This document shows positions 11,254 through 45,217 of a stretch of 64,000 nucleotides of DNA, piece after piece. This DNA comes from Gammaproteobacteria bacterium (lineage in GTDB: Bacteria; Pseudomonadota; Gammaproteobacteria; Xanthomonadales; SZUA-36). Both the position numbers and the translations under genes were made by a program. The stretch is taken from NCBI GenBank assembly GCA_024277815.1, contig JAJRUM010000056.1, positions 19,592 through 83,591 on the forward strand. The letters run 5' to 3'. Position 1 is the first letter of the stretch. Every line of letters starts with the position of its first letter. The notes under the pieces are model-generated. The model was not told the origin of the DNA. It ran no database searches and saw only the letters and a list, made by a program, of their open reading frames with translations.

Positions 11254-13035
11254 ATGAATGAGGTTGTAAGCAAAATCGGTACACAAACAACCAGCGAGAT
11301 CACGTCCAGTGACGCGCAGGCCATTGCACGGACCATCCTGGATGGATTCGAAAAACACTATCACCGGTTCCGGGAATTCAGCAATGAGGCCATGACCTGT
11401 TTTGAGCGGGCCGACTGGGCACGGGTCGGTGAAGCCACCAAAGAGCGCATACTCGGTTACGAAACCCGGGTCACTGAAACGGTAGAAATACTGAATAAGC
11501 ACTTTCCAGGTGCAGCAAAGAATGCCCGGTGGTGGCCTGACATCAAGTCAGCCTATATCACCATAGTGATGAATCACCTTCAGTCTGAGTGTGCTGAAAC
11601 ATTTTATAATTCAGTAGCCTGCAGAGTTCTTCATAGAGATTACTATAATAACAGAAATATTTTCTGGCGGCCGGCATTGAGTGTCGAGCACCTGCACGGA
11701 TCCAGCCCGACTTATCGCAGCTATTACCCACCAACACACGGCTTACGCCGTTGCCTGCTGCAAATTCTGACCGGTTTTAACATCAACAACTCATTCCAGA
11801 ACCTGCGCCGCGACATACGCCGCCTTGAACAAACCATCATCAAGCACCGCGCCAAAACCTGGAAGGCACTCCCAAGCCACCAGATACAAGTACTGACTTC
11901 CTTGTTCTTCCGTAACAAGGCCGCTTATATCGTCTGCCGCATCATCAATGGCGACCGCACTCAGGCTTTGATTATTCCGCTGATGCAGGATAAGAGTGGC
12001 AAGGTGTTTGTTGACACCGCCCTGATGCGGGACAAGGACGTTGCCATTGTTTTCAGCTTTTCACGGGCTTACTTCATGGTCCACATGGAGGTTCCTTCCG
12101 CCTATGTGAACTTCCTGCTGTCCATCATGCCGGGCAAGTCGCAGGTTGATCTGTACGCGATGCTGGGCCTGCAGAAGCAGGCCAAAACCCTGTTCTACCG
12201 GGAAATGCAATTTCACCTGCGCCATTCCCAGGATAATTTCCAGATTGCGCCCGGTGTGCGCGGCATGGTTATGCTGGTGTTCACACTGCCCTCTTTTCCA
12301 TTCGTATTCAAGTTGATCAGGGACCGCTTCTACCCACCCAAAACCTCTTCACGCGAAGATGTGCAGGGTAAGTACCAACTGGTTAAGTTTCATGACCGGG
12401 TTGGCAGAATGGCCGATACGCTGGAATACTCCAATGTCGCCATTCCCCTCAATCGCATCGACCCCGCCTTGATGGATGAACTGAACGCAACGGCTGAAAG
12501 CTCACTTGAAATTGTCGGCGAGAACCTGATCATCGAGCATATCTATATCGAACGCCGCATGGAGCCGCTTGACCGCTACCTGGCACATGCCTCCTCACCG
12601 GCCATGCGACGCCGGGCAATTAGGGATTTCGGCCAGGCGATCCGGGATCTTGCCGGTGCGAATATCTTCCCGGGTGATATGTTGAAGAAAAACTTCGGTG
12701 TTACCAGGACAGAGCGTGTGGTGTTTTACGACTACGATGAAATCAGTTACATCACGGACTGCAATTTCCGCCATATTCCACCGGCACGCAGCTACGAGGA
12801 TGAAATTTCGGACACGCCCTGGTATTCAATCGGGCCACACGACGTGTTCCCGGAATCATTTGCACCGTTCTTCTTCGCCAACCAGCAGGATCTTGCGCTA
12901 TTCAAAGAAGATCATGCGGATTTATTGGAGGCAGATTGGTGGAACAGTATGAAAGAGGATATTCTCGCGGGCCGTCAGACTGACGTGTTCCCCTATCCCA
13001 TTAAACGCCGGTTTTCAGTTCGCTACGGGAGTTGA
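11254..13035 (+). CDS. aceK: Isocitrate dehydrogenase kinase/phosphatase
   Basis: 593 aa, collinear with E. coli AceK: FFRNKAAYIV, FSRAYFMV, GMVMLVFTLPSFPFVFKLIRDRF, KFHDRVGRMADT, YIERRM.PL, ANIFPGDML.KNFGVTR..RVVFYDYDEI, and a C-terminal RRFSVRYG. Confidence 0.95.
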   Translation: MNEVVSKIGTQTTSEITSSDAQAIARTILDGFEKHYHRFREFSNEAMTCFERADWARVGEATKERILGYETRVTETVEILNKHFPGAAKNARWWPDIKSAYITIVMNHLQSECAETFYNSVACRVLHRDYYNNRNIFWRPALSVEHLHGSSPTYRSYYPPTHGLRRCLLQILTGFNINNSFQNLRRDIRRLEQTIIKHRAKTWKALPSHQIQVLTSLFFRNKAAYIVCRIINGDRTQALIIPLMQDKSGKVFVDTALMRDKDVAIVFSFSRAYFMVHMEVPSAYVNFLLSIMPGKSQVDLYAMLGLQKQAKTLFYREMQFHLRHSQDNFQIAPGVRGMVMLVFTLPSFPFVFKLIRDRFYPPKTSSREDVQGKYQLVKFHDRVGRMADTLEYSNVAIPLNRIDPALMDELNATAESSLEIVGENLIIEHIYIERRMEPLDRYLAHASSPAMRRRAIRDFGQAIRDLAGANIFPGDMLKKNFGVTRTERVVFYDYDEISYITDCNFRHIPPARSYEDEISDTPWYSIGPHDVFPESFAPFFFANQQDLALFKEDHADLLEADWWNSMKEDILAGRQTDVFPYPIKRRFSVRYGS

Positions 13036-15464: not shown

Positions 15465-17654
15465 ATGCTTGAAAGCCGGAACCCGGTTGCAGATGCCTTC
15501 CGACGAATACTTCCCGCTATTTCGCCGATATTGCTTCTGGGCCTCAATGTTTTCATTTTCGGAACATTTCTGGTGTTCAATGAAAACCGGGGTGAATTCC
15601 TGGTTCCGTACACCACTGCCCTGTATCAATACTTTCTTCCTGGCCTGGCGATTACAGTAACAGCAGCGCTGCTGCTAACCGCTTTTGGTAAAAACGCGGG
15701 CCGCCATTTCAACGCGGTCGTCATATTGCTCGGTGTCATGACTTATATTCACGGCAACCTGTTGCTTTGGAATACAGGCATCCTGGACGGCTCACAGCTG
15801 GATTTCTCAGCAAGATGGCGCAGTGTAGTTGATGTGATGCTTTGGCTCACACTGGCGGGCCTGGCCATCAGACAACGTCATTGGCTGGCTGTTCAAGGCT
15901 GGAAAATTTGTACAGTCCTGATCGTGTTCCAGGTTATCGGTGTAGTTTCGGTCTACAACAGAAATTTCGAGAACCCAACTACTACAGAATTCTCTTTTCC
16001 CGGCGGACTGGCAGAGTTTTCCAGTGACAACAACGTAATACAGATAGTTCTTGATGGCTTCCAGGCAAGTATCTTTGAAGAAATCCTGAGTGAGCACCCG
16101 GACCTGAAGGCCTCCTTCCAGGGTTTTACTTTTTTCAGGGATACGACCACAACCACTGACGTTACCTATTTGAGCATACCCGCAGCCCTGACCGGTACAG
16201 CGTTCCTGAACAAGCAACCTATATCCAGATATCTGGAAACAACCTTGAAGGGTGACAACCTGTACAGTTTTCTTGCCGGCATGGGGTACGGTGTCGATGT
16301 GGCGACGCCACTCTGGTGGAACCCCCCACGCTCGTTCTTTACCAACTACTATCGCATTCCGACCCCTTACACCAATGAGAAAGAAGCACGCTTCAGCATG
16401 GCCATGCTGCTGCTCGATATATCTCTTTACCGGGCCATGCCACATTTCCTGAAGGACATGATCTACAGATCTGGCAGCTGGCTTTTGTCTGCCAAGCTGG
16501 TAGCAAATCCAGCCCGGCAATTTGAGCACTTTTCGCACAGCGCTTTTTTTACTGACCTGCAAAATAAGATGACCGTCGTGCCGGGCAAGCCAAAGTACAA
16601 GTTCATCCACCTGGTCAGCCCTCATCCTCCCTTTGTCTCAAAACAGGATTGTGAGTTTTCCGGGACCACACTTGAGTACAGCAAGAAAGCCTTTTTGCAG
16701 CAGTCGTTCTGCATTCTGCAGACAGTCGCTGCTTTCCTTGACCAGCTAAGGGCTGCGGGGATTTACGACAATTCTCTGCTGCTCATTCATGGGGATCATG
16801 GTGGTGGCGTTTCGTTCTCACTAACAGGGGAAAATGGGGGGAAAGTCAAAAGTTCCGAAGCCCTGTTCAATGTGTGGGGCAACCCCATCCCGCTGATGTT
16901 AGTCAAGCCACTCAATGCCACCGATGACTTTCAAATCTCCCAGAGACACGCCCAGCTATTGGATATACCTGCCACAGTCGCTCAGCAACTTGGCCACACC
17001 AGCATATTCCCAGGTAACTCAATGTTTGCAGAGTCCCCGAATGGTGATTCGAATCGCTACTACTATCACAGCTTAATGCACCGCAACGAAGCTGCCTCCA
17101 GGGACTCTTTTGATGAAATGACAACGCACAAGATCAGTGGAAGCGTCTACCAACTCTCATCATGGAAAGACCTCGGTTCTTACACGATACCGGTGGTTGA
17201 TGGTGCCAACAGCTATTTGTGGGGTACACGGATCAGCTTCGGCAAACGTGGCAATTCACGGCCGTTTCAAGTAACGGGTTGGGCTACGACCACCGCCGAT
17301 AAAATTCTGTGGACAGAAGGTAATGAAACCAGCCTTGCTATCCAGTTCCCGGAAGTGAGCAAGCCGGTGACCATGCGTGCGGTCGTCAAGCCCATGCTCG
17401 CCCCGGGGAAGCTGGACCATCAGAGAGTCATCGTTTACGTTGGTGAAGAAAAAGTGGGGGTGTGGTCCATCGGCACCAGTAAATTTCAAACCGTAGAGTT
17501 GGTCTTGAAACCAGAACTGTTTGCCAGGAGCGGCAACACGCTTATCAGTTTTAAGCTGCCGGATGCCCAATCACCCAAATCGCTCGGAGTTGGTAATGAC
17601 ATCCGTGATCTGGCTGTTGCCTTTTACTCCATCGAATTCGAGCAGTCAGACTAA
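15465..17654 (+). CDS. Polytopic membrane sulfatase-fold (alkaline-phosphatase superfamily) hydrolase/transferase, paralogue 1
   Basis: The start is set at ATG 15465, preceded by AGGAGA. About 5 N-terminal TM helices are followed by IVLDGFQ, TTTTTDVTYLSIPAALTG, HLVSPHPPF, LLIHGDHGG and a ~200-aa C-terminal beta-rich domain. No C/SxPxR formylglycine motif is present. Confidence 0.75.
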   Translation: MLESRNPVADAFRRILPAISPILLLGLNVFIFGTFLVFNENRGEFLVPYTTALYQYFLPGLAITVTAALLLTAFGKNAGRHFNAVVILLGVMTYIHGNLLLWNTGILDGSQLDFSARWRSVVDVMLWLTLAGLAIRQRHWLAVQGWKICTVLIVFQVIGVVSVYNRNFENPTTTEFSFPGGLAEFSSDNNVIQIVLDGFQASIFEEILSEHPDLKASFQGFTFFRDTTTTTDVTYLSIPAALTGTAFLNKQPISRYLETTLKGDNLYSFLAGMGYGVDVATPLWWNPPRSFFTNYYRIPTPYTNEKEARFSMAMLLLDISLYRAMPHFLKDMIYRSGSWLLSAKLVANPARQFEHFSHSAFFTDLQNKMTVVPGKPKYKFIHLVSPHPPFVSKQDCEFSGTTLEYSKKAFLQQSFCILQTVAAFLDQLRAAGIYDNSLLLIHGDHGGGVSFSLTGENGGKVKSSEALFNVWGNPIPLMLVKPLNATDDFQISQRHAQLLDIPATVAQQLGHTSIFPGNSMFAESPNGDSNRYYYHSLMHRNEAASRDSFDEMTTHKISGSVYQLSSWKDLGSYTIPVVDGANSYLWGTRISFGKRGNSRPFQVTGWATTTADKILWTEGNETSLAIQFPEVSKPVTMRAVVKPMLAPGKLDHQRVIVYVGEEKVGVWSIGTSKFQTVELVLKPELFARSGNTLISFKLPDAQSPKSLGVGNDIRDLAVAFYSIEFEQSD

Positions 17655-17680
17655 ACAGCACGCGGGGCTAAATACCTTGG

Positions 17681-19090
17681 TCAGAGCGATGATTTGACGC
17701 ACAAATATAACGTTCGGTCACCATTGTTCACTTCTTGCTGCTGAACTATCCTGAAATGCCTCGCCAGGTTTTCCTCCAGCGACTCACGGCTGTAATCCTG
17801 GTATTTGTCTTCCTTGTTGCGCAATAAGGTTTTGACCTTGTCATCCTTGCGCGAAACGTACTCGATCACCAGCCTGTCCGTCAGGCCGGCCAACCAGTCT
17901 ATGAACTCTGCCAATGGAATATTGGCCGTTATCACCACGTGGTGAATCAACGCCAGACACAACACCATGTCGGGCCGGCTGCGGGACTGTAAATCACCCC
18001 GTTCGCAATTCCGCCAGCCCCAATTTGGCGAAGGGTCTGCCACGTTTTGCAACAGTGGCAGAATATTATCCTGTGTATCTTTATCCAGGAATAATCGTTC
18101 CACAGCAACATGGTCGATATCCATGGCCAGCACCTGCCGGCACCCTGCAGCAGCAATACGCGAGAACTGACCGGTATTGCAGCCGATATCCCACACCACG
18201 GCGGGTTTCTCTGTCGCTATGGCAGCGCGAATAAATTTTTCTTTGCGGACATGGTCGTCTTCTGAATAATTATGAAACTCGCTGTAGTCACCCCACTCCG
18301 AACCGCTGGCTTCCCACTCAAGTTTCTGCACCAGTTTCTGCATTTTCCGCACATTTACAAGGATCAGTTCGCGGTTGAAGCCCGCAGATTTGAGGCTGGA
18401 ACGAACATTTTCTGATGACCCGCCATAACGTCGGTCCAGCTTGGCCTGCAACCAGACATGGCTCATCACGCCCTTGCGGAACCGGTCACGGAATCCAAAC
18501 AGTGCTGCTGCTGTCTGCACATCAATACCGTTGATGGCCGCACGCATGAAGGGCTGAAAATTGCAGCCTTTGTAGGCCTGCAGGAACAAGGGGAACAGGA
18601 ACATTTCACAAAACTGCCGGTAACCTGACCAGGGCTCGCCTTGTTGCAACGGCTCAAAAGACGGAATATCAATAAACACCGCTTTCCGGTCGACAAATTG
18701 CACGTTATAGGGCGTGGCGTCCTTCAGAGTGAAACCGCTGCTGACTGCCTGTTCAACCAGCTGTAATTGCAGGCTCGCCGCCGCCTTAAGCATGCTGAAG
18801 GTCCATTCGTACGGGTAACTGACCACTGGCACCGCATCATGCTCAAGGAATCCGGTCCACTGCGATTGAATCTCTTCCGGCAGCGGGTTCTCCTCAACTG
18901 CAACTTCCCGCGTACCGATGACCTTGCCTGATTCGGCCAGCCTTTGATAAAAAGGCTTTTGCCGCAGTTGCCGGTAGTTTTCAAGCGCTGACGCACTCAA
19001 GCCCCGAAATATTCGCTCCTGGTAGTGATATACGCGGCCGTCACGATCGCGGAATGAGCCAGCATTGACCGTTGCCTTTGGGTTACCCAT
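17681..19090 (-). CDS. Fusion protein: N-terminal kinase-like domain plus C-terminal class I SAM-dependent methyltransferase
   Basis: The start is set at ATG 19090 (MGNPKATVNAGSFRDRDGRVY). The C-terminal VVWDIGCNTGQFS...AMDID forms methyltransferase motifs I and II. The N-terminal half carries LKDATPYNVQFVDRKAVFIDIPSF, a DxxxxN...ID spacing like the catalytic loop and metal-binding Asp of APH/choline-kinase folds. Confidence 0.7.
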   Translation of the reverse strand: MGNPKATVNAGSFRDRDGRVYHYQERIFRGLSASALENYRQLRQKPFYQRLAESGKVIGTREVAVEENPLPEEIQSQWTGFLEHDAVPVVSYPYEWTFSMLKAAASLQLQLVEQAVSSGFTLKDATPYNVQFVDRKAVFIDIPSFEPLQQGEPWSGYRQFCEMFLFPLFLQAYKGCNFQPFMRAAINGIDVQTAAALFGFRDRFRKGVMSHVWLQAKLDRRYGGSSENVRSSLKSAGFNRELILVNVRKMQKLVQKLEWEASGSEWGDYSEFHNYSEDDHVRKEKFIRAAIATEKPAVVWDIGCNTGQFSRIAAAGCRQVLAMDIDHVAVERLFLDKDTQDNILPLLQNVADPSPNWGWRNCERGDLQSRSRPDMVLCLALIHHVVITANIPLAEFIDWLAGLTDRLVIEYVSRKDDKVKTLLRNKEDKYQDYSRESLEENLARHFRIVQQQEVNNGDRTLYLCVKSSL

Positions 19091-19097
19091 CAATGAT

Positions 19098-19301
19098 TCA
19101 GTCTGATCCGTCTTCAGGATCTTCCTTCTTTGCCGCGCCAAGCGCGACCCTCAGCTTATGCCAGTACAACTTGACCGCCACACCCACGGCAGCAACACCA
19201 CCGAGAATAACCTGCAACAGCATGCTGCCGGTGCCAGGATCAAGGTAGGCCACTGCGTCAGCGCACATTAACAGCAACAAAATGGTGATGAATATTCTCA
19301 T
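19098..19301 (-). CDS. 67-aa membrane peptide (signal-like N-terminus, YLDPGTGS motif, one TM helix, charged tail)
   Basis: MRIFITILLLLMCADAVAYLDPGTGSMLLQVILGGVAAVGVAVKLYWHKLRVALGAAKKEDPEDGSD. Its stop lies 7 nt before the methyltransferase ATG, and it sits 49 nt downstream of tadA on the same strand. Whether it is really coding is inferred from this position and from the hydrophobicity pattern only. Confidence 0.55.
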   Translation of the reverse strand: MRIFITILLLLMCADAVAYLDPGTGSMLLQVILGGVAAVGVAVKLYWHKLRVALGAAKKEDPEDGSD

Positions 19302-19350
19302 GGTGTTCAGTCTCTTCAAACAGCCCAACCGGGCCTGCAAGTGTTTTGGC

Positions 19351-19821
19351 TCATCTCCGCTGGCGGAAAAACCCCTTCAACAAGGCAGAACTTTCATCCG
19401 CCAGGCAACCGCCAACCACTACTGGAGCGTGATTGTGGGCAGGATTGAGTAAAAGGTCAAACTTTCCACCCGCCGCACCGGTTTTCGGATCACTTGCGGC
19501 ATAAACAATACGCAACAGACGGGCGTGGATCATGGCGCCTGCGCACATCATGCAAGGCTCAAGCGTGGCGTAAAGAGTGCAATCCTTCAGGCGGTGATTA
19601 CCCAATGTTTTACCAGCCTCGCGCATGGCCATGATCTCAGCATGTGCAGAGGGGTCGTGAGAAGCGATATTACGATTCCAGCCACGGCCGACAATTTCGC
19701 CATTGTGTACAATCACTGCGCCGACCGGGACCTCTCCCTCGCAGGCTGCTTTTTCTGCCAACCGCAGAGCCTCTGCCATGTGTCTGGCATCATGCACACT
19801 GAGCGCGCGTTCAGGCATCAT
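19351..19821 (-). CDS. tadA: tRNA adenosine(34) deaminase
   Basis: 156 aa with the CDA zinc motifs HAEIMAM and PCMMCAGA. The N-terminal MAEALRLAEKA..EVPVGAVIV is typical of TadA. Confidence 0.93.
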   Translation of the reverse strand: MMPERALSVHDARHMAEALRLAEKAACEGEVPVGAVIVHNGEIVGRGWNRNIASHDPSAHAEIMAMREAGKTLGNHRLKDCTLYATLEPCMMCAGAMIHARLLRIVYAASDPKTGAAGGKFDLLLNPAHNHAPVVVGGCLADESSALLKGFFRQRR

Positions 19822-19994
19822 TCAACTGCAACGCCGTACTGCTGCTCATGGCTTTCACTTCTGCCAACAGGTGTCAATTTCCCTCTCCACGGTTCATTTT
19901 CGTCGTGCATATTAACTTACATTCACCATTGATCTCTGTGTAATATGCAGACTCTTTTTTCTTTCCATTGTTGGATCATATACTTTACCAAGCG

Positions 19995-22055
19995 ATGCGC
20001 CCGACCCAAAACAGATCCAACCTTTTGCTGCTGCCGTTCGCGCTGGCGGGTTTTGCCCTCGCGCAACCCGTGTACAACCTGTTGCTGGCCACACCCGTTT
20101 TCCTGTTGGCCCGTCAAAATACGGCTGCTGACGTTTGGGCGCTCACCAGCGTATTGAGTCTGCTCATCCCGCTGGCTCTGGCACTACCAGGTTGGTTGGC
20201 GTGGCGACGTTGGCCGCTCTATGCCTCCCTCTGGTGCTGGGCGGTCAGCAGCGTGTTTATTGCGCTGTTTGCAGCACAGTTATTGCAAAGCAGTCTCGGT
20301 GATCACTGGCTGTTGTTTATCGGTCTGACGGCGGCCACGGGCTGCACGCTAGCCTGGCTTCTGCTGTTTACCCGCTGGCAAACGCTCACACTTGTACTGG
20401 CCGCAGTGGCGGTATTGTTCCCGTTATGGTTTCTGTTTGGCGCCCGTGCTACCGAGCAGGTCGATACGTTCGCTGCGCTCTCACCCGAACACCAGGCGAC
20501 CGGCAAGCCACTTCCAGACATTGTCTTTATTATCCTCGACGAACTGCCTCTGGCCACGCTGCTGAATAGTGACCTGCAGATCGACCAGGAGTTGTTCCCT
20601 GGTTTTGCACGCTTACAGTCCATCTCCAACTGGTATGTCAACACCACATCCGTGTCCGACGGTACGGCTGATGCCGTGCCTTCCATTCTGACGGGTCGCT
20701 TTGCCGGTGAAGAAGATTCTGAACTGACCGTCGCGGAACACCCATTCAATCTCTTTACCATGCTGGGTCAACGCTACCGATACAATGTTGCAGAAACCGT
20801 TACACGCCTGTGCCCGACTTCACTATGCCCCCGTTCCGGACCTGGCATGGGTACCCGGTTCAAGGCATTGCTGCTGGATCTGACAGCCATCTACCTGCAT
20901 CGCATCACGCCCGACCGCTGGATCGCACAGTTGCCGGTGGTTACCAATAACTGGAGCGGTTTTTTTGCTGAGCGACAGGTGTTCTTTCCTGATGGGTGGC
21001 TGGAGTACGCGGGTCAGCAAACCACGATCGACCGGCCAGGTTATTTCAGGCGTTTCATTGCTTCGATTCAGAAGGGTGAACGACCGGGTCTGAATTTTAT
21101 GCACATCCTGTTCCCCCATGAACCACTGGCATATTTACCCGACGGCGAGAACTATGGCCTCCAGTGGTTGCGGGGCCTGCACAAACAACAGTGGGGTGAT
21201 GTGGAGTGGAGTATTGTCAGCGGTAAGCAACGGCATTTCCTGCAAACGCAATATGCCGACCGCCTGTTGGGTAGCTTGCTCGATCATTTGCAACAACAGG
21301 ACATGCTGGATGACAGCATGATCGTGGTGGTTGCGGATCACGGTATAAATTTTGCACTGAATGACCGGCGCCGGGGGCTCACTGACAACAACGCTGCAGC
21401 GATGCTAAGGGTACCCTTGCTGATCAAATTCCCCGGCCAGCATACTGGCAGGCGGCAAACCAATCCCGCCATGACCATCGATATTCTGCCCACCCTGCTG
21501 GCTACGCTGGGTATAACTTCCCAATCATTGCAAGCAGATGGCATCGATCTTCAGTCCTCCGCTGCATTGATACCACGCTCGAGAATTGCAAACTCCTACC
21601 TGCACAGGCAGCTGGAAGTCCTTGACGAGAGCCGCCTGAAACTTGCGCCGCTGGTGGCCGAGAACCGTACCCAGTTGAAGCTTGACAACAACACGGGCGC
21701 GTTGTGGCAAATCGGACCTTACGATGAGTACCGGGGACAAGACATGCAGGTCGTCTGCAAAGAATCAGTGACCGGTGTTGAAGCGCACCTGGATGGCTTC
21801 AGCAAACTGCCCAACACCCGACCGGAGCAAACCATACGGGCTTTTGTTGCGGGGGCTTTTAGTGGCGAGGAGGTACCGGCTTCATCGACACCATTTCTGA
21901 TTACCAGCCAGGGCCGTATCGTGGCTTCCGGAGATACCTGGCTGTTCAATGACCGTTGGTTATTTTTTGCATTGGTAGAGCCCGGCTACGTCAGGCAGGC
22001 CGATTGGGCACCAAAAGCCTGGCTGGTGGATGGGCAGCGATGCCTCGGCAAATGA
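19995..22055 (+). CDS. Polytopic membrane sulfatase-fold hydrolase/transferase, paralogue 2
   Basis: The start is set at ATG 19995; the ORF is open from a TTG at 19968. It has 4-5 N-terminal TM helices, then IILDELP, TTSVSDGTADAVPSILTG, HILFPHEPL and VVVADHGIN in the same order as paralogue 1, followed by a distinct C-terminal domain. Confidence 0.75.
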   Translation: MRPTQNRSNLLLLPFALAGFALAQPVYNLLLATPVFLLARQNTAADVWALTSVLSLLIPLALALPGWLAWRRWPLYASLWCWAVSSVFIALFAAQLLQSSLGDHWLLFIGLTAATGCTLAWLLLFTRWQTLTLVLAAVAVLFPLWFLFGARATEQVDTFAALSPEHQATGKPLPDIVFIILDELPLATLLNSDLQIDQELFPGFARLQSISNWYVNTTSVSDGTADAVPSILTGRFAGEEDSELTVAEHPFNLFTMLGQRYRYNVAETVTRLCPTSLCPRSGPGMGTRFKALLLDLTAIYLHRITPDRWIAQLPVVTNNWSGFFAERQVFFPDGWLEYAGQQTTIDRPGYFRRFIASIQKGERPGLNFMHILFPHEPLAYLPDGENYGLQWLRGLHKQQWGDVEWSIVSGKQRHFLQTQYADRLLGSLLDHLQQQDMLDDSMIVVVADHGINFALNDRRRGLTDNNAAAMLRVPLLIKFPGQHTGRRQTNPAMTIDILPTLLATLGITSQSLQADGIDLQSSAALIPRSRIANSYLHRQLEVLDESRLKLAPLVAENRTQLKLDNNTGALWQIGPYDEYRGQDMQVVCKESVTGVEAHLDGFSKLPNTRPEQTIRAFVAGAFSGEEVPASSTPFLITSQGRIVASGDTWLFNDRWLFFALVEPGYVRQADWAPKAWLVDGQRCLGK

Positions 22056-42383: not shown

Positions 42384-43295
42384 CTAATCCGTGTACCCAA
42401 AACGCTCAATCAGCTTATCGCTGTCTGACCAGTCGCGGCTGACCTTAACCCACAAACGCAAATATACTTTTTCTCCAAACAGTTCCTCAAGCACCATGCG
42501 TGCTTTGCTTCCCACCTGTTTGAGGACGATACCCCTTTTACCAATGGTGATCTGCTTTTGACTATCCCTTTCAACCCAGATAATAGCCCCAATGGTCAGC
42601 AGTTTTTTCTCCCGCTTGAACTCTTCGATCTGCACTGTTAACGCATAAGGTAACTCCTGGTGCAGACGCAACGTCAATTGCTCGCGGACCATTTCAGCCG
42701 CAAGAAATCGTTCACTGCGATCAGTAAACTGGTCTTCATCATAAAATGGCCGGGAAAAAGGCAGCCGTTGCATCACCCGCCTTTCCAGTTCATCTACACC
42801 GTCGCCCTTCTTTGCCGATATCATCAGGATACTGTCATATTCCTGCTCGCCGGCATGCTGTTCTACAAGCAGCAGCAGTGACTCTTTCTCAGCGACCTCA
42901 TCGATTTTGTTGAATACCAGCATTACGGGTACATTTGCGGCTTTCAATGCCCTCGCTACAAAGTCATCCTGACGTGTCCATTTATCGGCCTCAACCAGAA
43001 ACATCACCAGGTCAACATCACGGAAAGAAGCTTGAGCAACCCGGTTCATATAACGGTTCAGTGCCCGCTTGGCAGTATGGTGGATGCCGGGCGTATCTAC
43101 GTACACCACCTGCCCCTGGTCCGTGGTCTTGATCCCTGCGAGGCGCTGCCGGGTCGTCTGCGGCTTGGCCGTTACAATACTGACCTTCTGGCCAAGAATT
43201 CGATTGAGCAAGGTTGACTTACCAACGTTAGGCCGGCCAACAATGGCAACATAGCCAAAGCGATAATCTTCAGAATGGAGGTTTTTTTCTGTCAT
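42384..43295 (-). CDS. era: GTPase Era
   Basis: 303 aa. G1 motif GRPNVGKST, DTPG, NKID and a C-terminal KH domain. It overlaps the rnc stop by 4 nt. Confidence 0.95.
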   Translation of the reverse strand: MTEKNLHSEDYRFGYVAIVGRPNVGKSTLLNRILGQKVSIVTAKPQTTRQRLAGIKTTDQGQVVYVDTPGIHHTAKRALNRYMNRVAQASFRDVDLVMFLVEADKWTRQDDFVARALKAANVPVMLVFNKIDEVAEKESLLLLVEQHAGEQEYDSILMISAKKGDGVDELERRVMQRLPFSRPFYDEDQFTDRSERFLAAEMVREQLTLRLHQELPYALTVQIEEFKREKKLLTIGAIIWVERDSQKQITIGKRGIVLKQVGSKARMVLEELFGEKVYLRLWVKVSRDWSDSDKLIERFGYTD

Positions 43296-44416: not shown

Positions 44417-45217
44417 CTAGTTTATACCATTGCCCATCCGTGACCAATCTGCACAGCCTTTTTCGAAATCAAAGTTGAGCCAGGTACCCACGGCACGACC
44501 CAACAGGTTCTCTTCAGGGACAAAGCCCCACATGCGACTATCGTTGCTGCGATCACGGTTATCGCCCATCATGAAATAATGACCCTCGGGCACTTTCCAT
44601 TGGCCATCCCGCCCAGGCCGGTCGACATGCATCAGGATTTCGTGGTTAACATTTCCCAATTGTTCATCGAACAATACCGCGTCACGGGCAGGCGTTGAGC
44701 ATTTTATGTCACTGCTTGTAAAGCTGCCTGCACTCACCTTTTCTACTTTCTCGCCGTTAACATAAAGCTGCTTGTTCCGATAACTGATCGTGTCACCCGG
44801 CAAGCCAATGGCCCGTTTGATGAAATTGATGCCGGGGTCCTTAGGATAACGGAATACAACCACGTCACCCCGTTGCGGCGCACCAACCGAGATGATCTTC
44901 TTGTTGATTACAGGCAAGCGAACCCCATAGGCAAATTTGTTGACGACAATGAAATCACCAATCAGCAGCGTGGGGATCATGGAACCAGAGGGTATTTTAA
45001 ACGGCTCAAACAGAAACGAACGAAACACCAGTACAATCAGCAAAACCGGGAATAAAGAGCGTGCATACTCCACCGCCACGGGTTCGCGTGGGGCTTCAAC
45101 ACTCTTTTGCACAGCACGATCCATACGCCCTTGCCTGAACAGCAGGCTATCCGCCAGCCAGATCAAACCGGAGACTGATGTCAACACGACCAGCACCAAC
45201 GCGAAATCAATATTCAT
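44417..45217 (-). CDS. lepB: Signal peptidase I
   Basis: 266 aa with SGSMIPTL (catalytic Ser), VNKFAYG, KRAIGLPGD (catalytic Lys) and GDNRDRSNDSR. Confidence 0.95.
   Translation of the reverse strand: MNIDFALVLVVLTSVSGLIWLADSLLFRQGRMDRAVQKSVEAPREPVAVEYARSLFPVLLIVLVFRSFLFEPFKIPSGSMIPTLLIGDFIVVNKFAYGVRLPVINKKIISVGAPQRGDVVVFRYPKDPGINFIKRAIGLPGDTISYRNKQLYVNGEKVEKVSAGSFTSSDIKCSTPARDAVLFDEQLGNVNHEILMHVDRPGRDGQWKVPEGHYFMMGDNRDRSNDSRMWGFVPEENLLGRAVGTWLNFDFEKGCADWSRMGNGIN

Follow-up and report, generated by a model that had tools for sequence, protein, structure and literature searches.

A probable gammaproteobacterial member of a widespread module of a single-span micro-protein, a NoeA-like kinase/methyltransferase and membrane enzymes of the alkaline phosphatase superfamily

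Why are a kinase-like/methyltransferase fusion, a membrane peptide of 67 amino acids (aa) and two large membrane proteins of the alkaline phosphatase (AP) superfamily encoded next to one another in a gammaproteobacterial genome? The genes occupy positions 15465 to 22055 of the window, i.e., of the whole 64,000-nucleotide (nt) stretch that was analyzed. An earlier note on this DNA had stated that no characterized system has this composition. This statement had to be given up: the fusion protein was assigned to NoeA, the gene order peptide-noeA-noeB exists in Sinorhizobium meliloti, and a corresponding trio of Legionella anisa (Lani) was described by bioinformatics in 2022 (PMC9758233). Because the NoeA/NoeB module with its micro-protein was already known, the system is not an undescribed one. 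The copy in the window is very probably a gammaproteobacterial member of this micro-protein/NoeA/NoeB-type module.

The gene of the first AP-superfamily protein, P1 (15465..17654, + strand), is an open reading frame (ORF) with a PF00884 match and encodes a polytopic membrane protein of 729 aa, which defines the P1-type. It converges, with a gap of 26 nt, on the NoeA-like gene (17681..19090, - strand), which was recognized by BLASTP to NoeA and encodes a predicted cytoplasmic protein of 469 aa with a kinase-like and a class I S-adenosylmethionine (SAM) methyltransferase domain. The gene of the 67-aa micro-protein (19098..19301, - strand), a partner of the Lani_1193 type, was identified by its motif and its position, and tadA (19351..19821, - strand) by the NCBIfam TadA equivalog model. 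The gene of the second AP-superfamily protein, P2 (19995..22055, + strand, PF00884), encodes a polytopic membrane protein of 686 aa, the P2-type. It diverges from tadA and lies beyond it as seen from the micro-protein/NoeA-like pair. The tadA stop codon is separated by 49 nt from the micro-protein start, and the micro-protein stop codon by 7 nt from the NoeA-like start. The NCBI gene calls on the same contig have identical lengths (729, 469, 67 and 686 aa), and the ORFs, coordinates and spacings of the earlier note were all recovered.

BLASTP aligned the 469-aa protein over its full length with NoeA of S. meliloti (32% identity over 472 aa, E 5e-81), and a tblastn search of 57 Sinorhizobium plasmids matched, with an E-value of about 2e-69, a gene annotated as noeA. 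Judged by these alignments, the protein is a NoeA-family fusion of kinase-like and methyltransferase domains. The family comprised 5589 clusters of 50% identity at E <= 0.001 and 1658 at E <= 1e-30, and nearly all of the best 150 representatives (455-490 aa) matched over the full length. When one genome per species was scanned, more than 600 species matched, and carriers were found among the Gamma- and Alphaproteobacteria, Acidobacteriota, Actinomycetota, Planctomycetota, Binatia, Nitrospirota, Thermodesulfobacteriota and Bacteroidota. The best database relative of the window's protein was 85% identical, and more than 100 relatives had an identity of at least 76%.

Pfam matched only the C-terminal third of the protein, and only weakly (Methyltransf_23, Methyltransf_12 and Methyltransf_11), and the hydropathy scan scored no transmembrane (TM) helix outside the methyltransferase core. 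Invariance was judged in 40 diverse homologues of 32-48% identity. Invariant residues were R29, E95, W96, F98, D124, N129, D141 and S144 in the N-terminal half, and D301, G303, N305, G358, E363, R370, H383, H384 and D416 in the C-terminal half. By this alignment, the kinase-type residues R29, D124, N129 and D141 as well as the SAM-binding motifs are intact.

The putative kinase-like domain (residues 1-275; 18266..19090, - strand) was assigned by invariant residues, the alignment with RIO3 and Foldseek. It contains the catalytic loop LKD124ATPYN129 and the metal loop FID141IPS, and R29 is proposed to be the equivalent of K72 of protein kinase A (PKA). The site would thus be an atypical one, with Arg for K72 and the equivalents of D166, N171 and D184 kept, and this matches the published description of Lani_1194. 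In a profile search of the PDB with the N-terminal half, the best match was the RIO3 kinase (E 0.2), and the alignment covered exactly the catalytic and metal loops (D124/N129/D141). With the full-length AlphaFold2 model (predicted local distance difference test, pLDDT, 76) Foldseek returned mostly methyltransferases, with protein kinases lower in the list. With an AlphaFold model of the N-terminal domain only (pLDDT 59) nearly all of the top 50 matches had a kinase fold, among them AceK, WbdD, Mps1 and PknI, at E-values of 0.01-0.1, which are weak because this model is poorer than the full-length one. Sequence and model modestly favor a kinase-like N-terminal domain, and with this modest weight for the kinase part the fusion proposed by the earlier note stands.

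The predicted class I methyltransferase domain (residues 285-469; 17684..18238, - strand) was assigned by weak Pfam matches, Foldseek and invariant residues. It has the motif I VWD301IG303CN305TG, then D352-P-S-P after strand 4, and the invariant pair H383-H384. Its Foldseek matches were NodS, Hen1, COMT, the methyltransferase domain of WbdD and BCDIN3D, with E-values of 5e-6 to 1e-4.

Which genes accompany the NoeA-like gene in other genomes? The sample consisted of 82 fetched loci plus the window, i.e., 83 loci; the L numbers stand for loci of other genomes. AP and peptide genes were counted with a family hidden Markov model in the 53 loci that had at least 3 kb on both sides (full-flank loci). 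In 73 of the 83 loci, from many phyla, the NoeA-like gene was directly preceded by a micro-protein ORF (Y-[LIMVF]-D-[PA]-x-x-G-S, a helix and a basic tail), and the micro-protein was present in 48 of the 53 full-flank loci (91%). An AP-superfamily gene was found within 3 kb in 44 of the 53 (83%); in 28 of the 53 it followed immediately downstream on the same strand, in several cases with a 4-nt overlap with the NoeA-like gene. Within 3 kb, AP genes were about 11 times as dense as at 3-10 kb. ORF clustering placed P1 and P2 in one family, which was present in 58 loci. The three kinds of genes travel together across many phyla, and no partner accompanies the NoeA-like gene more faithfully than the micro-protein does. 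The earlier note had made its idea dependent on co-localization in other genomes, and fusion, YLDPGTGS peptide and sulfatase-fold membrane protein were indeed found together across phyla.

A fourth conserved partner was not detected: in a Pfam census of 91 first neighbors outside the trio no family occurred in more than four loci, and glycosyltransferases (GT2/GT4) were scattered among the first neighbors. In six alphaproteobacterial loci a further sulfatase-fold protein is encoded divergently upstream, and on a Singulisphaera plasmid the NoeA-like gene is followed by a gene for an 'LTA synthase family protein'. Occasional neighbors were NodL (pSymA), a polysaccharide deacetylase (L001), an MBOAT protein (L085), GT2/GT4 enzymes and a Sulfatase-GDPD fusion (L003), and they point to glycan decoration. 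For the Legionella trio, OafA is a published neighbor.

The earlier note had grouped tadA with the micro-protein and methyltransferase genes in a tight co-directional string. The spacing and direction were correct, and the identity of TadA is clear (NF008113, 201 bits versus a cut-off of 150, E 1e-59). However, tadA adjoins the module in only 5 of the 83 loci, all of them close relatives, and it was therefore rejected as a module member and is regarded as an incidental neighbor.

Two loci were noticed for their surroundings. In L002 (7480-12442) the peptide/NoeA-like pair is bracketed by three genes for 316-aa transposases (IS481-type by Pfam), with more DDE transposases near; the pair has been kept together while its surroundings were rearranged. 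L004 (JBLHGQ010000163.1, labelled Rhodothermales) contains tadA, the peptide gene, a NoeA-like gene (67% identical) and two AP genes, which is the gammaproteobacterial arrangement; it is either a mis-binned contig or a block that moved between phyla.

Among the closest known systems is the operon on the S. meliloti plasmid pSymA, where the gene order is nodL, a gene for a 71-aa hypothetical protein, noeA and noeB. The 71-aa product reads MPIIMSVVGFLILSIVPAHAYLDPGTGSMLVQGLIG and contains AHAYLDPGTGS and a TM helix; by this sequence it is a micro-protein of the same kind as the 67-aa product in the window. NoeB matches PF00884 (Sulfatase) with an E-value of 2e-10. In this locus (L083, 5769-5984) the micro-protein gene is annotated as 'hypothetical protein' and overlaps by 23 nt with the annotated start of noeA, and the operon name in use, nodL-noeA-noeB, omits it. 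The operon and the role of noeA and noeB as host-range genes are reportedly due to Ardourel et al. (1995, Mol Microbiol 17:687), and the genes are said to have been named in 1995. In the literature, noeA and noeB belong to the flavonoid-inducible nodL operon and are host-range genes of S. meliloti for which a modification of the Nod factor is hypothesized. NoeB aligned with P1 (E 7e-8 over 120 aa) and with P2 (E 1e-6 over 144 aa) only in the segment from H-x-x-P-H-x-P to D-H-G, and in a joint alignment with the P1/P2 family it shares D159, T203, H377 and D454-H455-G456. NoeB, P1 and P2 would accordingly have superfamily, motifs and genomic role in common, with one short segment as the basis for any kinship beyond the superfamily core.

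The second described relative is the trio Lani_1193/1194/1195. In PMC9758233, a survey of Legionella kinases published in Sci Rep in 2022, Lani_1194 is described as a NoeA homologue with a kinase-like domain, in which Arg replaces PKA K72 and the D/N/D residues are kept, and with a fused methyltransferase in 94% of the members. The same paper presents Lani_1193 as a hypothetical protein of about 65 aa that was found in 65% of 816 neighborhoods, and Lani_1195 as a protein with an AP fold (HHpred to EptA, 3e-27) that was found in 38% of them, and it calls the trio, without assigning it a role, 'an evolutionarily conserved functional unit'.

The micro-protein consists of a signal-peptide-like segment that ends with A-V-A, the motif YLDPGTGS (residues 19-26; 19224..19247, - strand), one TM helix, MLLQVILGGVAAVGVAVKLYW (19161..19223, - strand; hydropathy 2.07), with a conserved Q and G-G, and a tail that is first basic and then acidic. 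In the core alignment the Y and D of the motif were invariant and its G-S was at least 90% conserved, as were Q15, G19, G20 and A22 of the helix. A profile search retrieved at least 4708 clusters of relatives at E <= 1, and the 120 clusters that were listed were all 48-77 aa long and had no informative name. There was no family match in Pfam or NCBIfam, and a literature search for YLDPGTGS-type motifs yielded one irrelevant paper. From its conservation, the micro-protein is a conserved single-span membrane protein. An outside location is predicted for the motif and a cytoplasmic one for the tail, because the basic residues all follow the helix (positive-inside rule) and because an A-x-A site precedes the Tyr. 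The versions of Proteobacteria, Acidobacteriota, Nitrospirota and Binatia have a leader of 18-28 residues that ends with A-x-A just before the Tyr, and those of Actinomycetota and Planctomycetota start 4-13 residues before it. The combination of peptide, kinase and methyltransferase might recall a ribosomally synthesized and post-translationally modified peptide; this candidate was rejected, because conservation extends over the whole peptide, TM helix included, and no family of proteases or exporters was recurrent.

What kind of enzymes are P1 and P2? PF00884 (Sulfatase) matched P1 with an E-value of 7e-13 (residues 190-510) and P2 with 1.3e-14 (residues 174-507). In P1, an N-terminal membrane domain (about residues 1-165; 15465..15959, + strand; hydropathy peaks at 19, 57, 84 and 145) is followed by a catalytic AP-superfamily domain that is predicted to be periplasmic (16032..16994, + strand) and also matched LtaS in the PDB (E 1.5e-6), and by a C-terminal domain of about 220 aa without Pfam match (16995..17651, + strand). 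The catalytic domain of P2 (20514..21515, + strand) corresponds to its Pfam match, and the sequence matches of P2 in the PDB were choline sulfatase, LtaS and phosphonate monoester hydrolase. The earlier note had counted four to five N-terminal TM helices per protein. This agrees with the hydropathy scan, which scored four segments in P1, where a fifth, weaker one near residues 118-135 was seen by eye only, and about five in P2. The eight motifs quoted in the note were also located, in P1 at residues 194, 227, 382 and 439 and in P2 at residues 179, 217, 370 and 445.

An alignment of 81 members plus NoeB was used to define conserved columns. In P1 the columns of D197, T234, H382, P386, H387 and D444-H445-G446 were 80-100% conserved, and the counterparts in P2 are D182, T224, H370, H375 and D448-H449-G450. 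The Thr is found in a T-x-x-S-[VI]-P context; by this motif context it probably corresponds to T280 of EptA and T300 of LtaS. A regular-expression search found no C/S-x-P-x-R formylglycine motif in P1 or P2, as the earlier note had stated, which excludes that they are formylglycine-dependent sulfatases. The Thr nucleophile context, the retained D, H and D-H-G and the absence of the formylglycine motif together support the view, also taken in the note, that P1 and P2 are EptA/LtaS-like phosphotransferase-type enzymes rather than true sulfatases. Both proteins stayed below every NCBIfam threshold, with best scores of 16-50 bits versus 433-970 for the models of LtaS, YejM/LapC, PehA and choline sulfatase, and neither belongs to one of these named families; the LtaS model gave 28-41 bits versus 970, and the YejM model 25 bits for P2 and none for P1 versus 825. 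The C-terminal domain of about 200 aa matched no known family, and DUF7024 was found in 1 of 55 family members.

The two proteins had been called paralogous. This applies loosely, in that they share a superfamily; with 22% identity over 267 aa (E 5e-8) they are distant superfamily relatives and not recent duplicates, and they belong to two different subfamilies, each of which adjoins NoeA-like genes in other genomes. In Actinomycetota, Acidobacteriota, Planctomycetota and Binatia the co-directional partner is usually of the P2-type (28-35% identity to P2), and in most of these actinobacterial, acidobacterial, planctomycete and Binatia loci the P2-like copy is situated immediately downstream of the NoeA-like gene. 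The P1-type is the co-directional partner in other loci (25-31% identity to P1), and P1-type relatives adjoin NoeA-like genes in L029, L011, L010, L069, L007 and L086. By these alignments, the partner can come from at least two AP subfamilies. In L086 the NoeA-like gene (51% identical), which is preceded by a micro-protein gene, is faced by a convergent gene for a P1 homologue of 42% identity, and on this comparison the convergent arrangement is conserved at depth.

P2 has orthologues of 60% identity in L003 and of 50% in L002. The best non-self matches of P1 were 72%, 60% and 58% identical, and of 8000 candidates that were scored only 92 relatives reached E <= 1e-10; by these identities P1 is diverging much faster than the adjoining NoeA-like gene. 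In the lineage of the window the gene order is guaB, guaA, ..., AP gene, tadA, micro-protein, NoeA-like gene, a variable slot, fba and metA. In the window the slot is filled by P1, in L003 by a Sulfatase+GDPD fusion of 1010 aa, and in L001, among other genes, by that of a P1-type protein of 896 aa. The content of this slot downstream of the NoeA-like gene changes fast.

Several further observations concern the AP genes. L003 is the closest relative, with a NoeA-like protein of 80% identity, and its 1010-aa fusion (L003:11487-14516, + strand; Sulfatase E 6e-9, short match of 26.3 bits to glycerophosphodiester phosphodiesterase, GDPD, versus a cut-off of 23.6) hints at glycerophosphodiester chemistry. 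In L001, genes for a polysaccharide deacetylase (L001:5544-6365) and for a 617-aa Sulfatase-domain protein (L001:7330-9183) precede tadA; the latter is on the same strand as tadA, peptide and NoeA-like genes and has the position of P2, and it showed no match to P2. In L085 (6001-10908) a 56%-identical P1 homologue is situated beside an MBOAT O-acyltransferase gene and genes without annotation, and within 6 kb no NoeA-like gene was called, so that P1-type enzymes are not restricted to the module. In the Solirubrobacterales metagenome-assembled genomes of L048, L051, L053 and L080, tandem arrays of three to five AP paralogues are found downstream of the NoeA-like gene, which suggests a local expansion and diversification of the outward-facing component.

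The surroundings of the module in the window are of the housekeeping type, with aceK, metA and the class II fba on one side and guaA and guaB on the other. The aceK (end 13035) and metA (end 13001) ORFs are convergent, and their 3' ends overlap by 35 nt (13001-13035). Rfam and tRNA scans of the window gave no match. Promoter and terminator matches were no commoner than in shuffled sequence, and thus these scans were uninformative on a tadA-peptide-methyltransferase transcript. The earlier note had listed, as a weak extra hint, lower G+C values in P1 and the methyltransferase gene than in P2 and glpT. The total G+C content of P1 is indeed low (0.505, z -2.2), but the low value is located at codon positions 1 and 2, and the G+C content at third positions (GC3) is ordinary (0.581, z -0.4) and therefore gives no sign of foreign origin. 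The GC3 values of the NoeA-like gene (z +0.7) and the micro-protein gene are ordinary, too. The hint vanishes at third codon positions, a foreign origin of P1 and the methyltransferase gene was rejected, and the genes of the trio show no sign of recent acquisition. The lowest total G+C contents of the window belong to two other genes, 42384-43295 and 44417-45217 (- strand), with 0.499 and 0.506 (z -2.5 and -2.1).

What might the trio do? We consider it about an even chance that it forms a transmembrane unit for envelope decoration, in which the micro-protein couples the kinase/methyltransferase to the phosphotransferases. The micro-protein would reside in the inner membrane, with its Y-x-D-P-G-S-G-S motif in the periplasm and its basic tail in the cytoplasm. 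As a transmembrane adaptor it would dock the soluble kinase/methyltransferase on the inner side, and it would pack against the AP enzyme through its G-G-containing helix and the outer motif. The cytoplasmic enzyme would phosphorylate and methylate a membrane-bound precursor, for which a lipid-linked glycan and a lipid headgroup are candidates; its target could be the lipid-linked precursor of the decorated molecule, or the donor. The periplasmic AP domains would then take a phospho-substituent from a donor phospholipid and attach it to an exported glycoconjugate of the envelope. Envelope decoration by phosphotransfer is rather likely by itself, and the adaptor role is tentative and somewhat short of an even chance.

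Several points weigh against this proposal. The adaptor role is based on gene order, predicted topology and analogy, and the cytoplasmic tail that would dock the enzyme is the least conserved part of the micro-protein. The support for the kinase fold is statistically weak (E 0.2 for RIO3; Foldseek E 0.01-0.1 with a model of pLDDT 59). P1 and P2 of the window are encoded on the opposite strand, so that their arrangement does not imply co-expression. In 6 of the 53 full-flank loci (L016, L027, L042, L045, L052 and L059) peptide and NoeA-like genes are kept without a nearby AP gene. The literature, in a search that did not cover the 1995 primary paper on noeA and noeB, yielded no biochemical activity for any family member. 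The structure of the Nod factor was reportedly unchanged in the noeA and noeB mutants of Ardourel (1995), which would also speak against a modification of Nod factors by the module. Finally, the peptide is linked more tightly to the cytoplasmic enzyme than to the AP gene, yet the prediction places its best-conserved motif outside the cell. This combination keeps another idea alive, to which we give an outside chance, namely that the micro-protein is the catalytic centerpiece, with the Y-x-D-P-G-S-G-S motif as covalent acceptor or primer for a phospho-linked substituent built by the AP enzyme, and with control by the kinase/methyltransferase via the tail.

Other explanations distribute the roles differently. 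The kinase domain could phosphorylate an amino-alcohol such as ethanolamine, the methyltransferase could N-methylate it to a phosphocholine-like headgroup, and P1 and P2 could transfer this to lipopolysaccharide, glucans or another polymer; alternatively, the fusion could methylate phosphatidylethanolamine on the inner leaflet and thereby provide a dedicated lipid donor. The architecture of the fusion and the EptA/LtaS type of the AP enzymes would suit both versions, and the D/N-P-S-P after strand 4 resembles the (D/N)PPY of N-methyltransferases. However, a soluble phospho-headgroup in the cytoplasm would have to be activated and exported, and the donors of EptA/LtaS/OpgB-type enzymes are phospholipids on the outer face; the transfer of a soluble phosphoethanolamine/phosphocholine-type headgroup, as proposed in the earlier note, was left without support. 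The Pfam neighbor census contained no conserved cytidylyltransferase, LicD-type transferase or flippase, and the micro-protein would be left without a role. For the methyltransferase of Lani_1194, PMC9758233 gives a phosphoethanolamine N-methyltransferase as best Phyre2 template, but templates of class I methyltransferases are unspecific, and NodS, Hen1, COMT and WbdD score alike. Taken together, the two versions are unlikely. It is quite unlikely, too, that the micro-protein is itself the substrate, with the AP domains attaching a phospho-group to the Ser or Tyr of Y-x-D-P-G-S-G-S and the peptide serving as primer or signal. Phospho-modification of proteins has precedents in PptA, which acts on pilin, and EptC, which acts on FlgG. 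Conservation in the peptide is highest in the motif that is predicted to be extracytoplasmic (Y and D invariant, G-S at least 90%), and an exposed N-terminal motif would fit with the A-x-A leader before the Tyr in proteobacterial and acidobacterial versions or with a start 4-8 residues before it in actinobacterial ones. But the peptide is tied more tightly to the cytoplasmic enzyme (91% of the full-flank loci) than to the AP gene (83%) and persists where no AP gene is near, and the conserved Q and G-G in its TM helix point to helix packing.

If the module instead decorated a secreted oligosaccharide signal and not the envelope, this would agree with the rhizobial literature, which assumes such a role for NoeA/NoeB and Nod factors, with the location of the host-range genes noeA and noeB, for which Nod-factor modification is hypothesized, in the flavonoid-inducible nodL operon, and with the decoration of secreted factors that is proposed in PMC9758233. 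Against this stands the presence of the module in more than 600 species of many phyla; no nod-gene family was among the recurrent neighbors, the copy in the window lies between guaBA, tadA, fba and metA, and a periplasm-facing AP enzyme better suits envelope or periplasmic targets. This makes a secreted signal very unlikely as the target. Least probable of all, and close to refuted by the neighborhood statistics, is a coincidental adjacency of P1 and P2, as independent envelope phosphotransferases, to an unrelated methyltransferase operon. The opposite strand of both AP genes in the window, the 56%-identical P1 homologue beside MBOAT without a NoeA-like gene (L085) and the much faster divergence of P1 would be compatible with it. 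But AP genes are found within 3 kb in 44 of 53 loci, often overlapping the stop codon of the NoeA-like gene, both the P1-type and the P2-type recur beside NoeA-like genes, and also the convergent arrangement recurs in L086.

The envelope-decoration unit with a coupling micro-protein is thus the reading that we prefer. That a gammaproteobacterium of the free-living type has the module amid plain housekeeping genes speaks for a general role in the envelope rather than for one specific to symbiosis. Large and old as the module is (5589 clusters, more than 600 species representatives), its family spans host-range genes of a model symbiont and candidate effectors of Legionella. If the motif of the micro-protein were indeed an acceptor, hundreds of species in many phyla would have a protein-primed methyl-phospho decoration of the surface, and this would explain the host-range phenotype of NoeA/NoeB. 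The findings suggest concrete experiments rather than amounting to a new kind of system.

How does the trio compare with systems that are already known? EptA/MCR-1, LtaS, OpgB and BcsG have the same layout as P1 and P2, i.e., an extracytoplasmic AP-superfamily domain behind four to five TM helices, and they are also alike in the Thr in T-x-x-S-[VI]-P, in D and D-H as metal ligands and in one more His. EptA, LtaS, OpgB and BcsG use phospholipid donors on the membrane's outer face. In contrast to these enzymes, P1 and P2 have an extra C-terminal domain of about 200 aa and score far below the curated family models. An analogy to the whole trio may be BcsE-BcsF-BcsG, the system for phosphoethanolamine cellulose, in which a polytopic AP phosphotransferase is encoded together with a cytoplasmic protein (about 500 aa) and a micro-protein (about 60 aa) that spans the membrane once. 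The resemblance would be one of three-part logic, and no sequence relationship is claimed: BcsE is a c-di-GMP-binding protein and not a kinase/methyltransferase, and BcsF has no YLDPGSGS motif.

WbdD, which caps the O-antigen of E. coli O9a, likewise unites a kinase fold with a class I methyltransferase in a single membrane-associated enzyme of the cytoplasm that acts on a glycan, and it was among the Foldseek matches for both domains of the NoeA-like protein. However, its order is reversed, with methyltransferase, kinase and coiled coil, whereas the NoeA-like protein has the kinase-like domain first, then the methyltransferase, and no coiled-coil tail or C-terminal extension. The Pfam census of 91 first neighbors contained no Wzm/Wzt ABC-transporter family among the recurrent neighbors. 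A WbdD-type O-antigen terminator was therefore ruled out. In agreement with this, PMC9758233 treats the WbdD-like Lcin_0519 as a family separate from Lani_1194.

With Lani_1193/1194/1195 of L. anisa, as described in PMC9758233, the window shares all three kinds of proteins. The Lani proteins are treated there as candidate secreted effectors, whereas envelope decoration is favored here, and the motif and topology of the peptide and the AP subfamilies, which were not found in the passages of the paper that were consulted, are added by the present analysis. The S. meliloti operon has the same components again: a full-length NoeA homologue, a YLDPGTGS peptide ahead of it and the sulfatase/AP-fold protein NoeB directly downstream. 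NoeB, with 553 aa, is shorter than P1 and P2 and distantly related to them, and it is encoded by a single co-directional gene in contrast to the two opposite-strand genes of the window. The rhizobial operon is carried by a plasmid, linked to nodL and regulated by a nod box, whereas the window copy is chromosomal and situated among housekeeping genes, and it is for the rhizobial genes that a genetic phenotype, host range, has been described.

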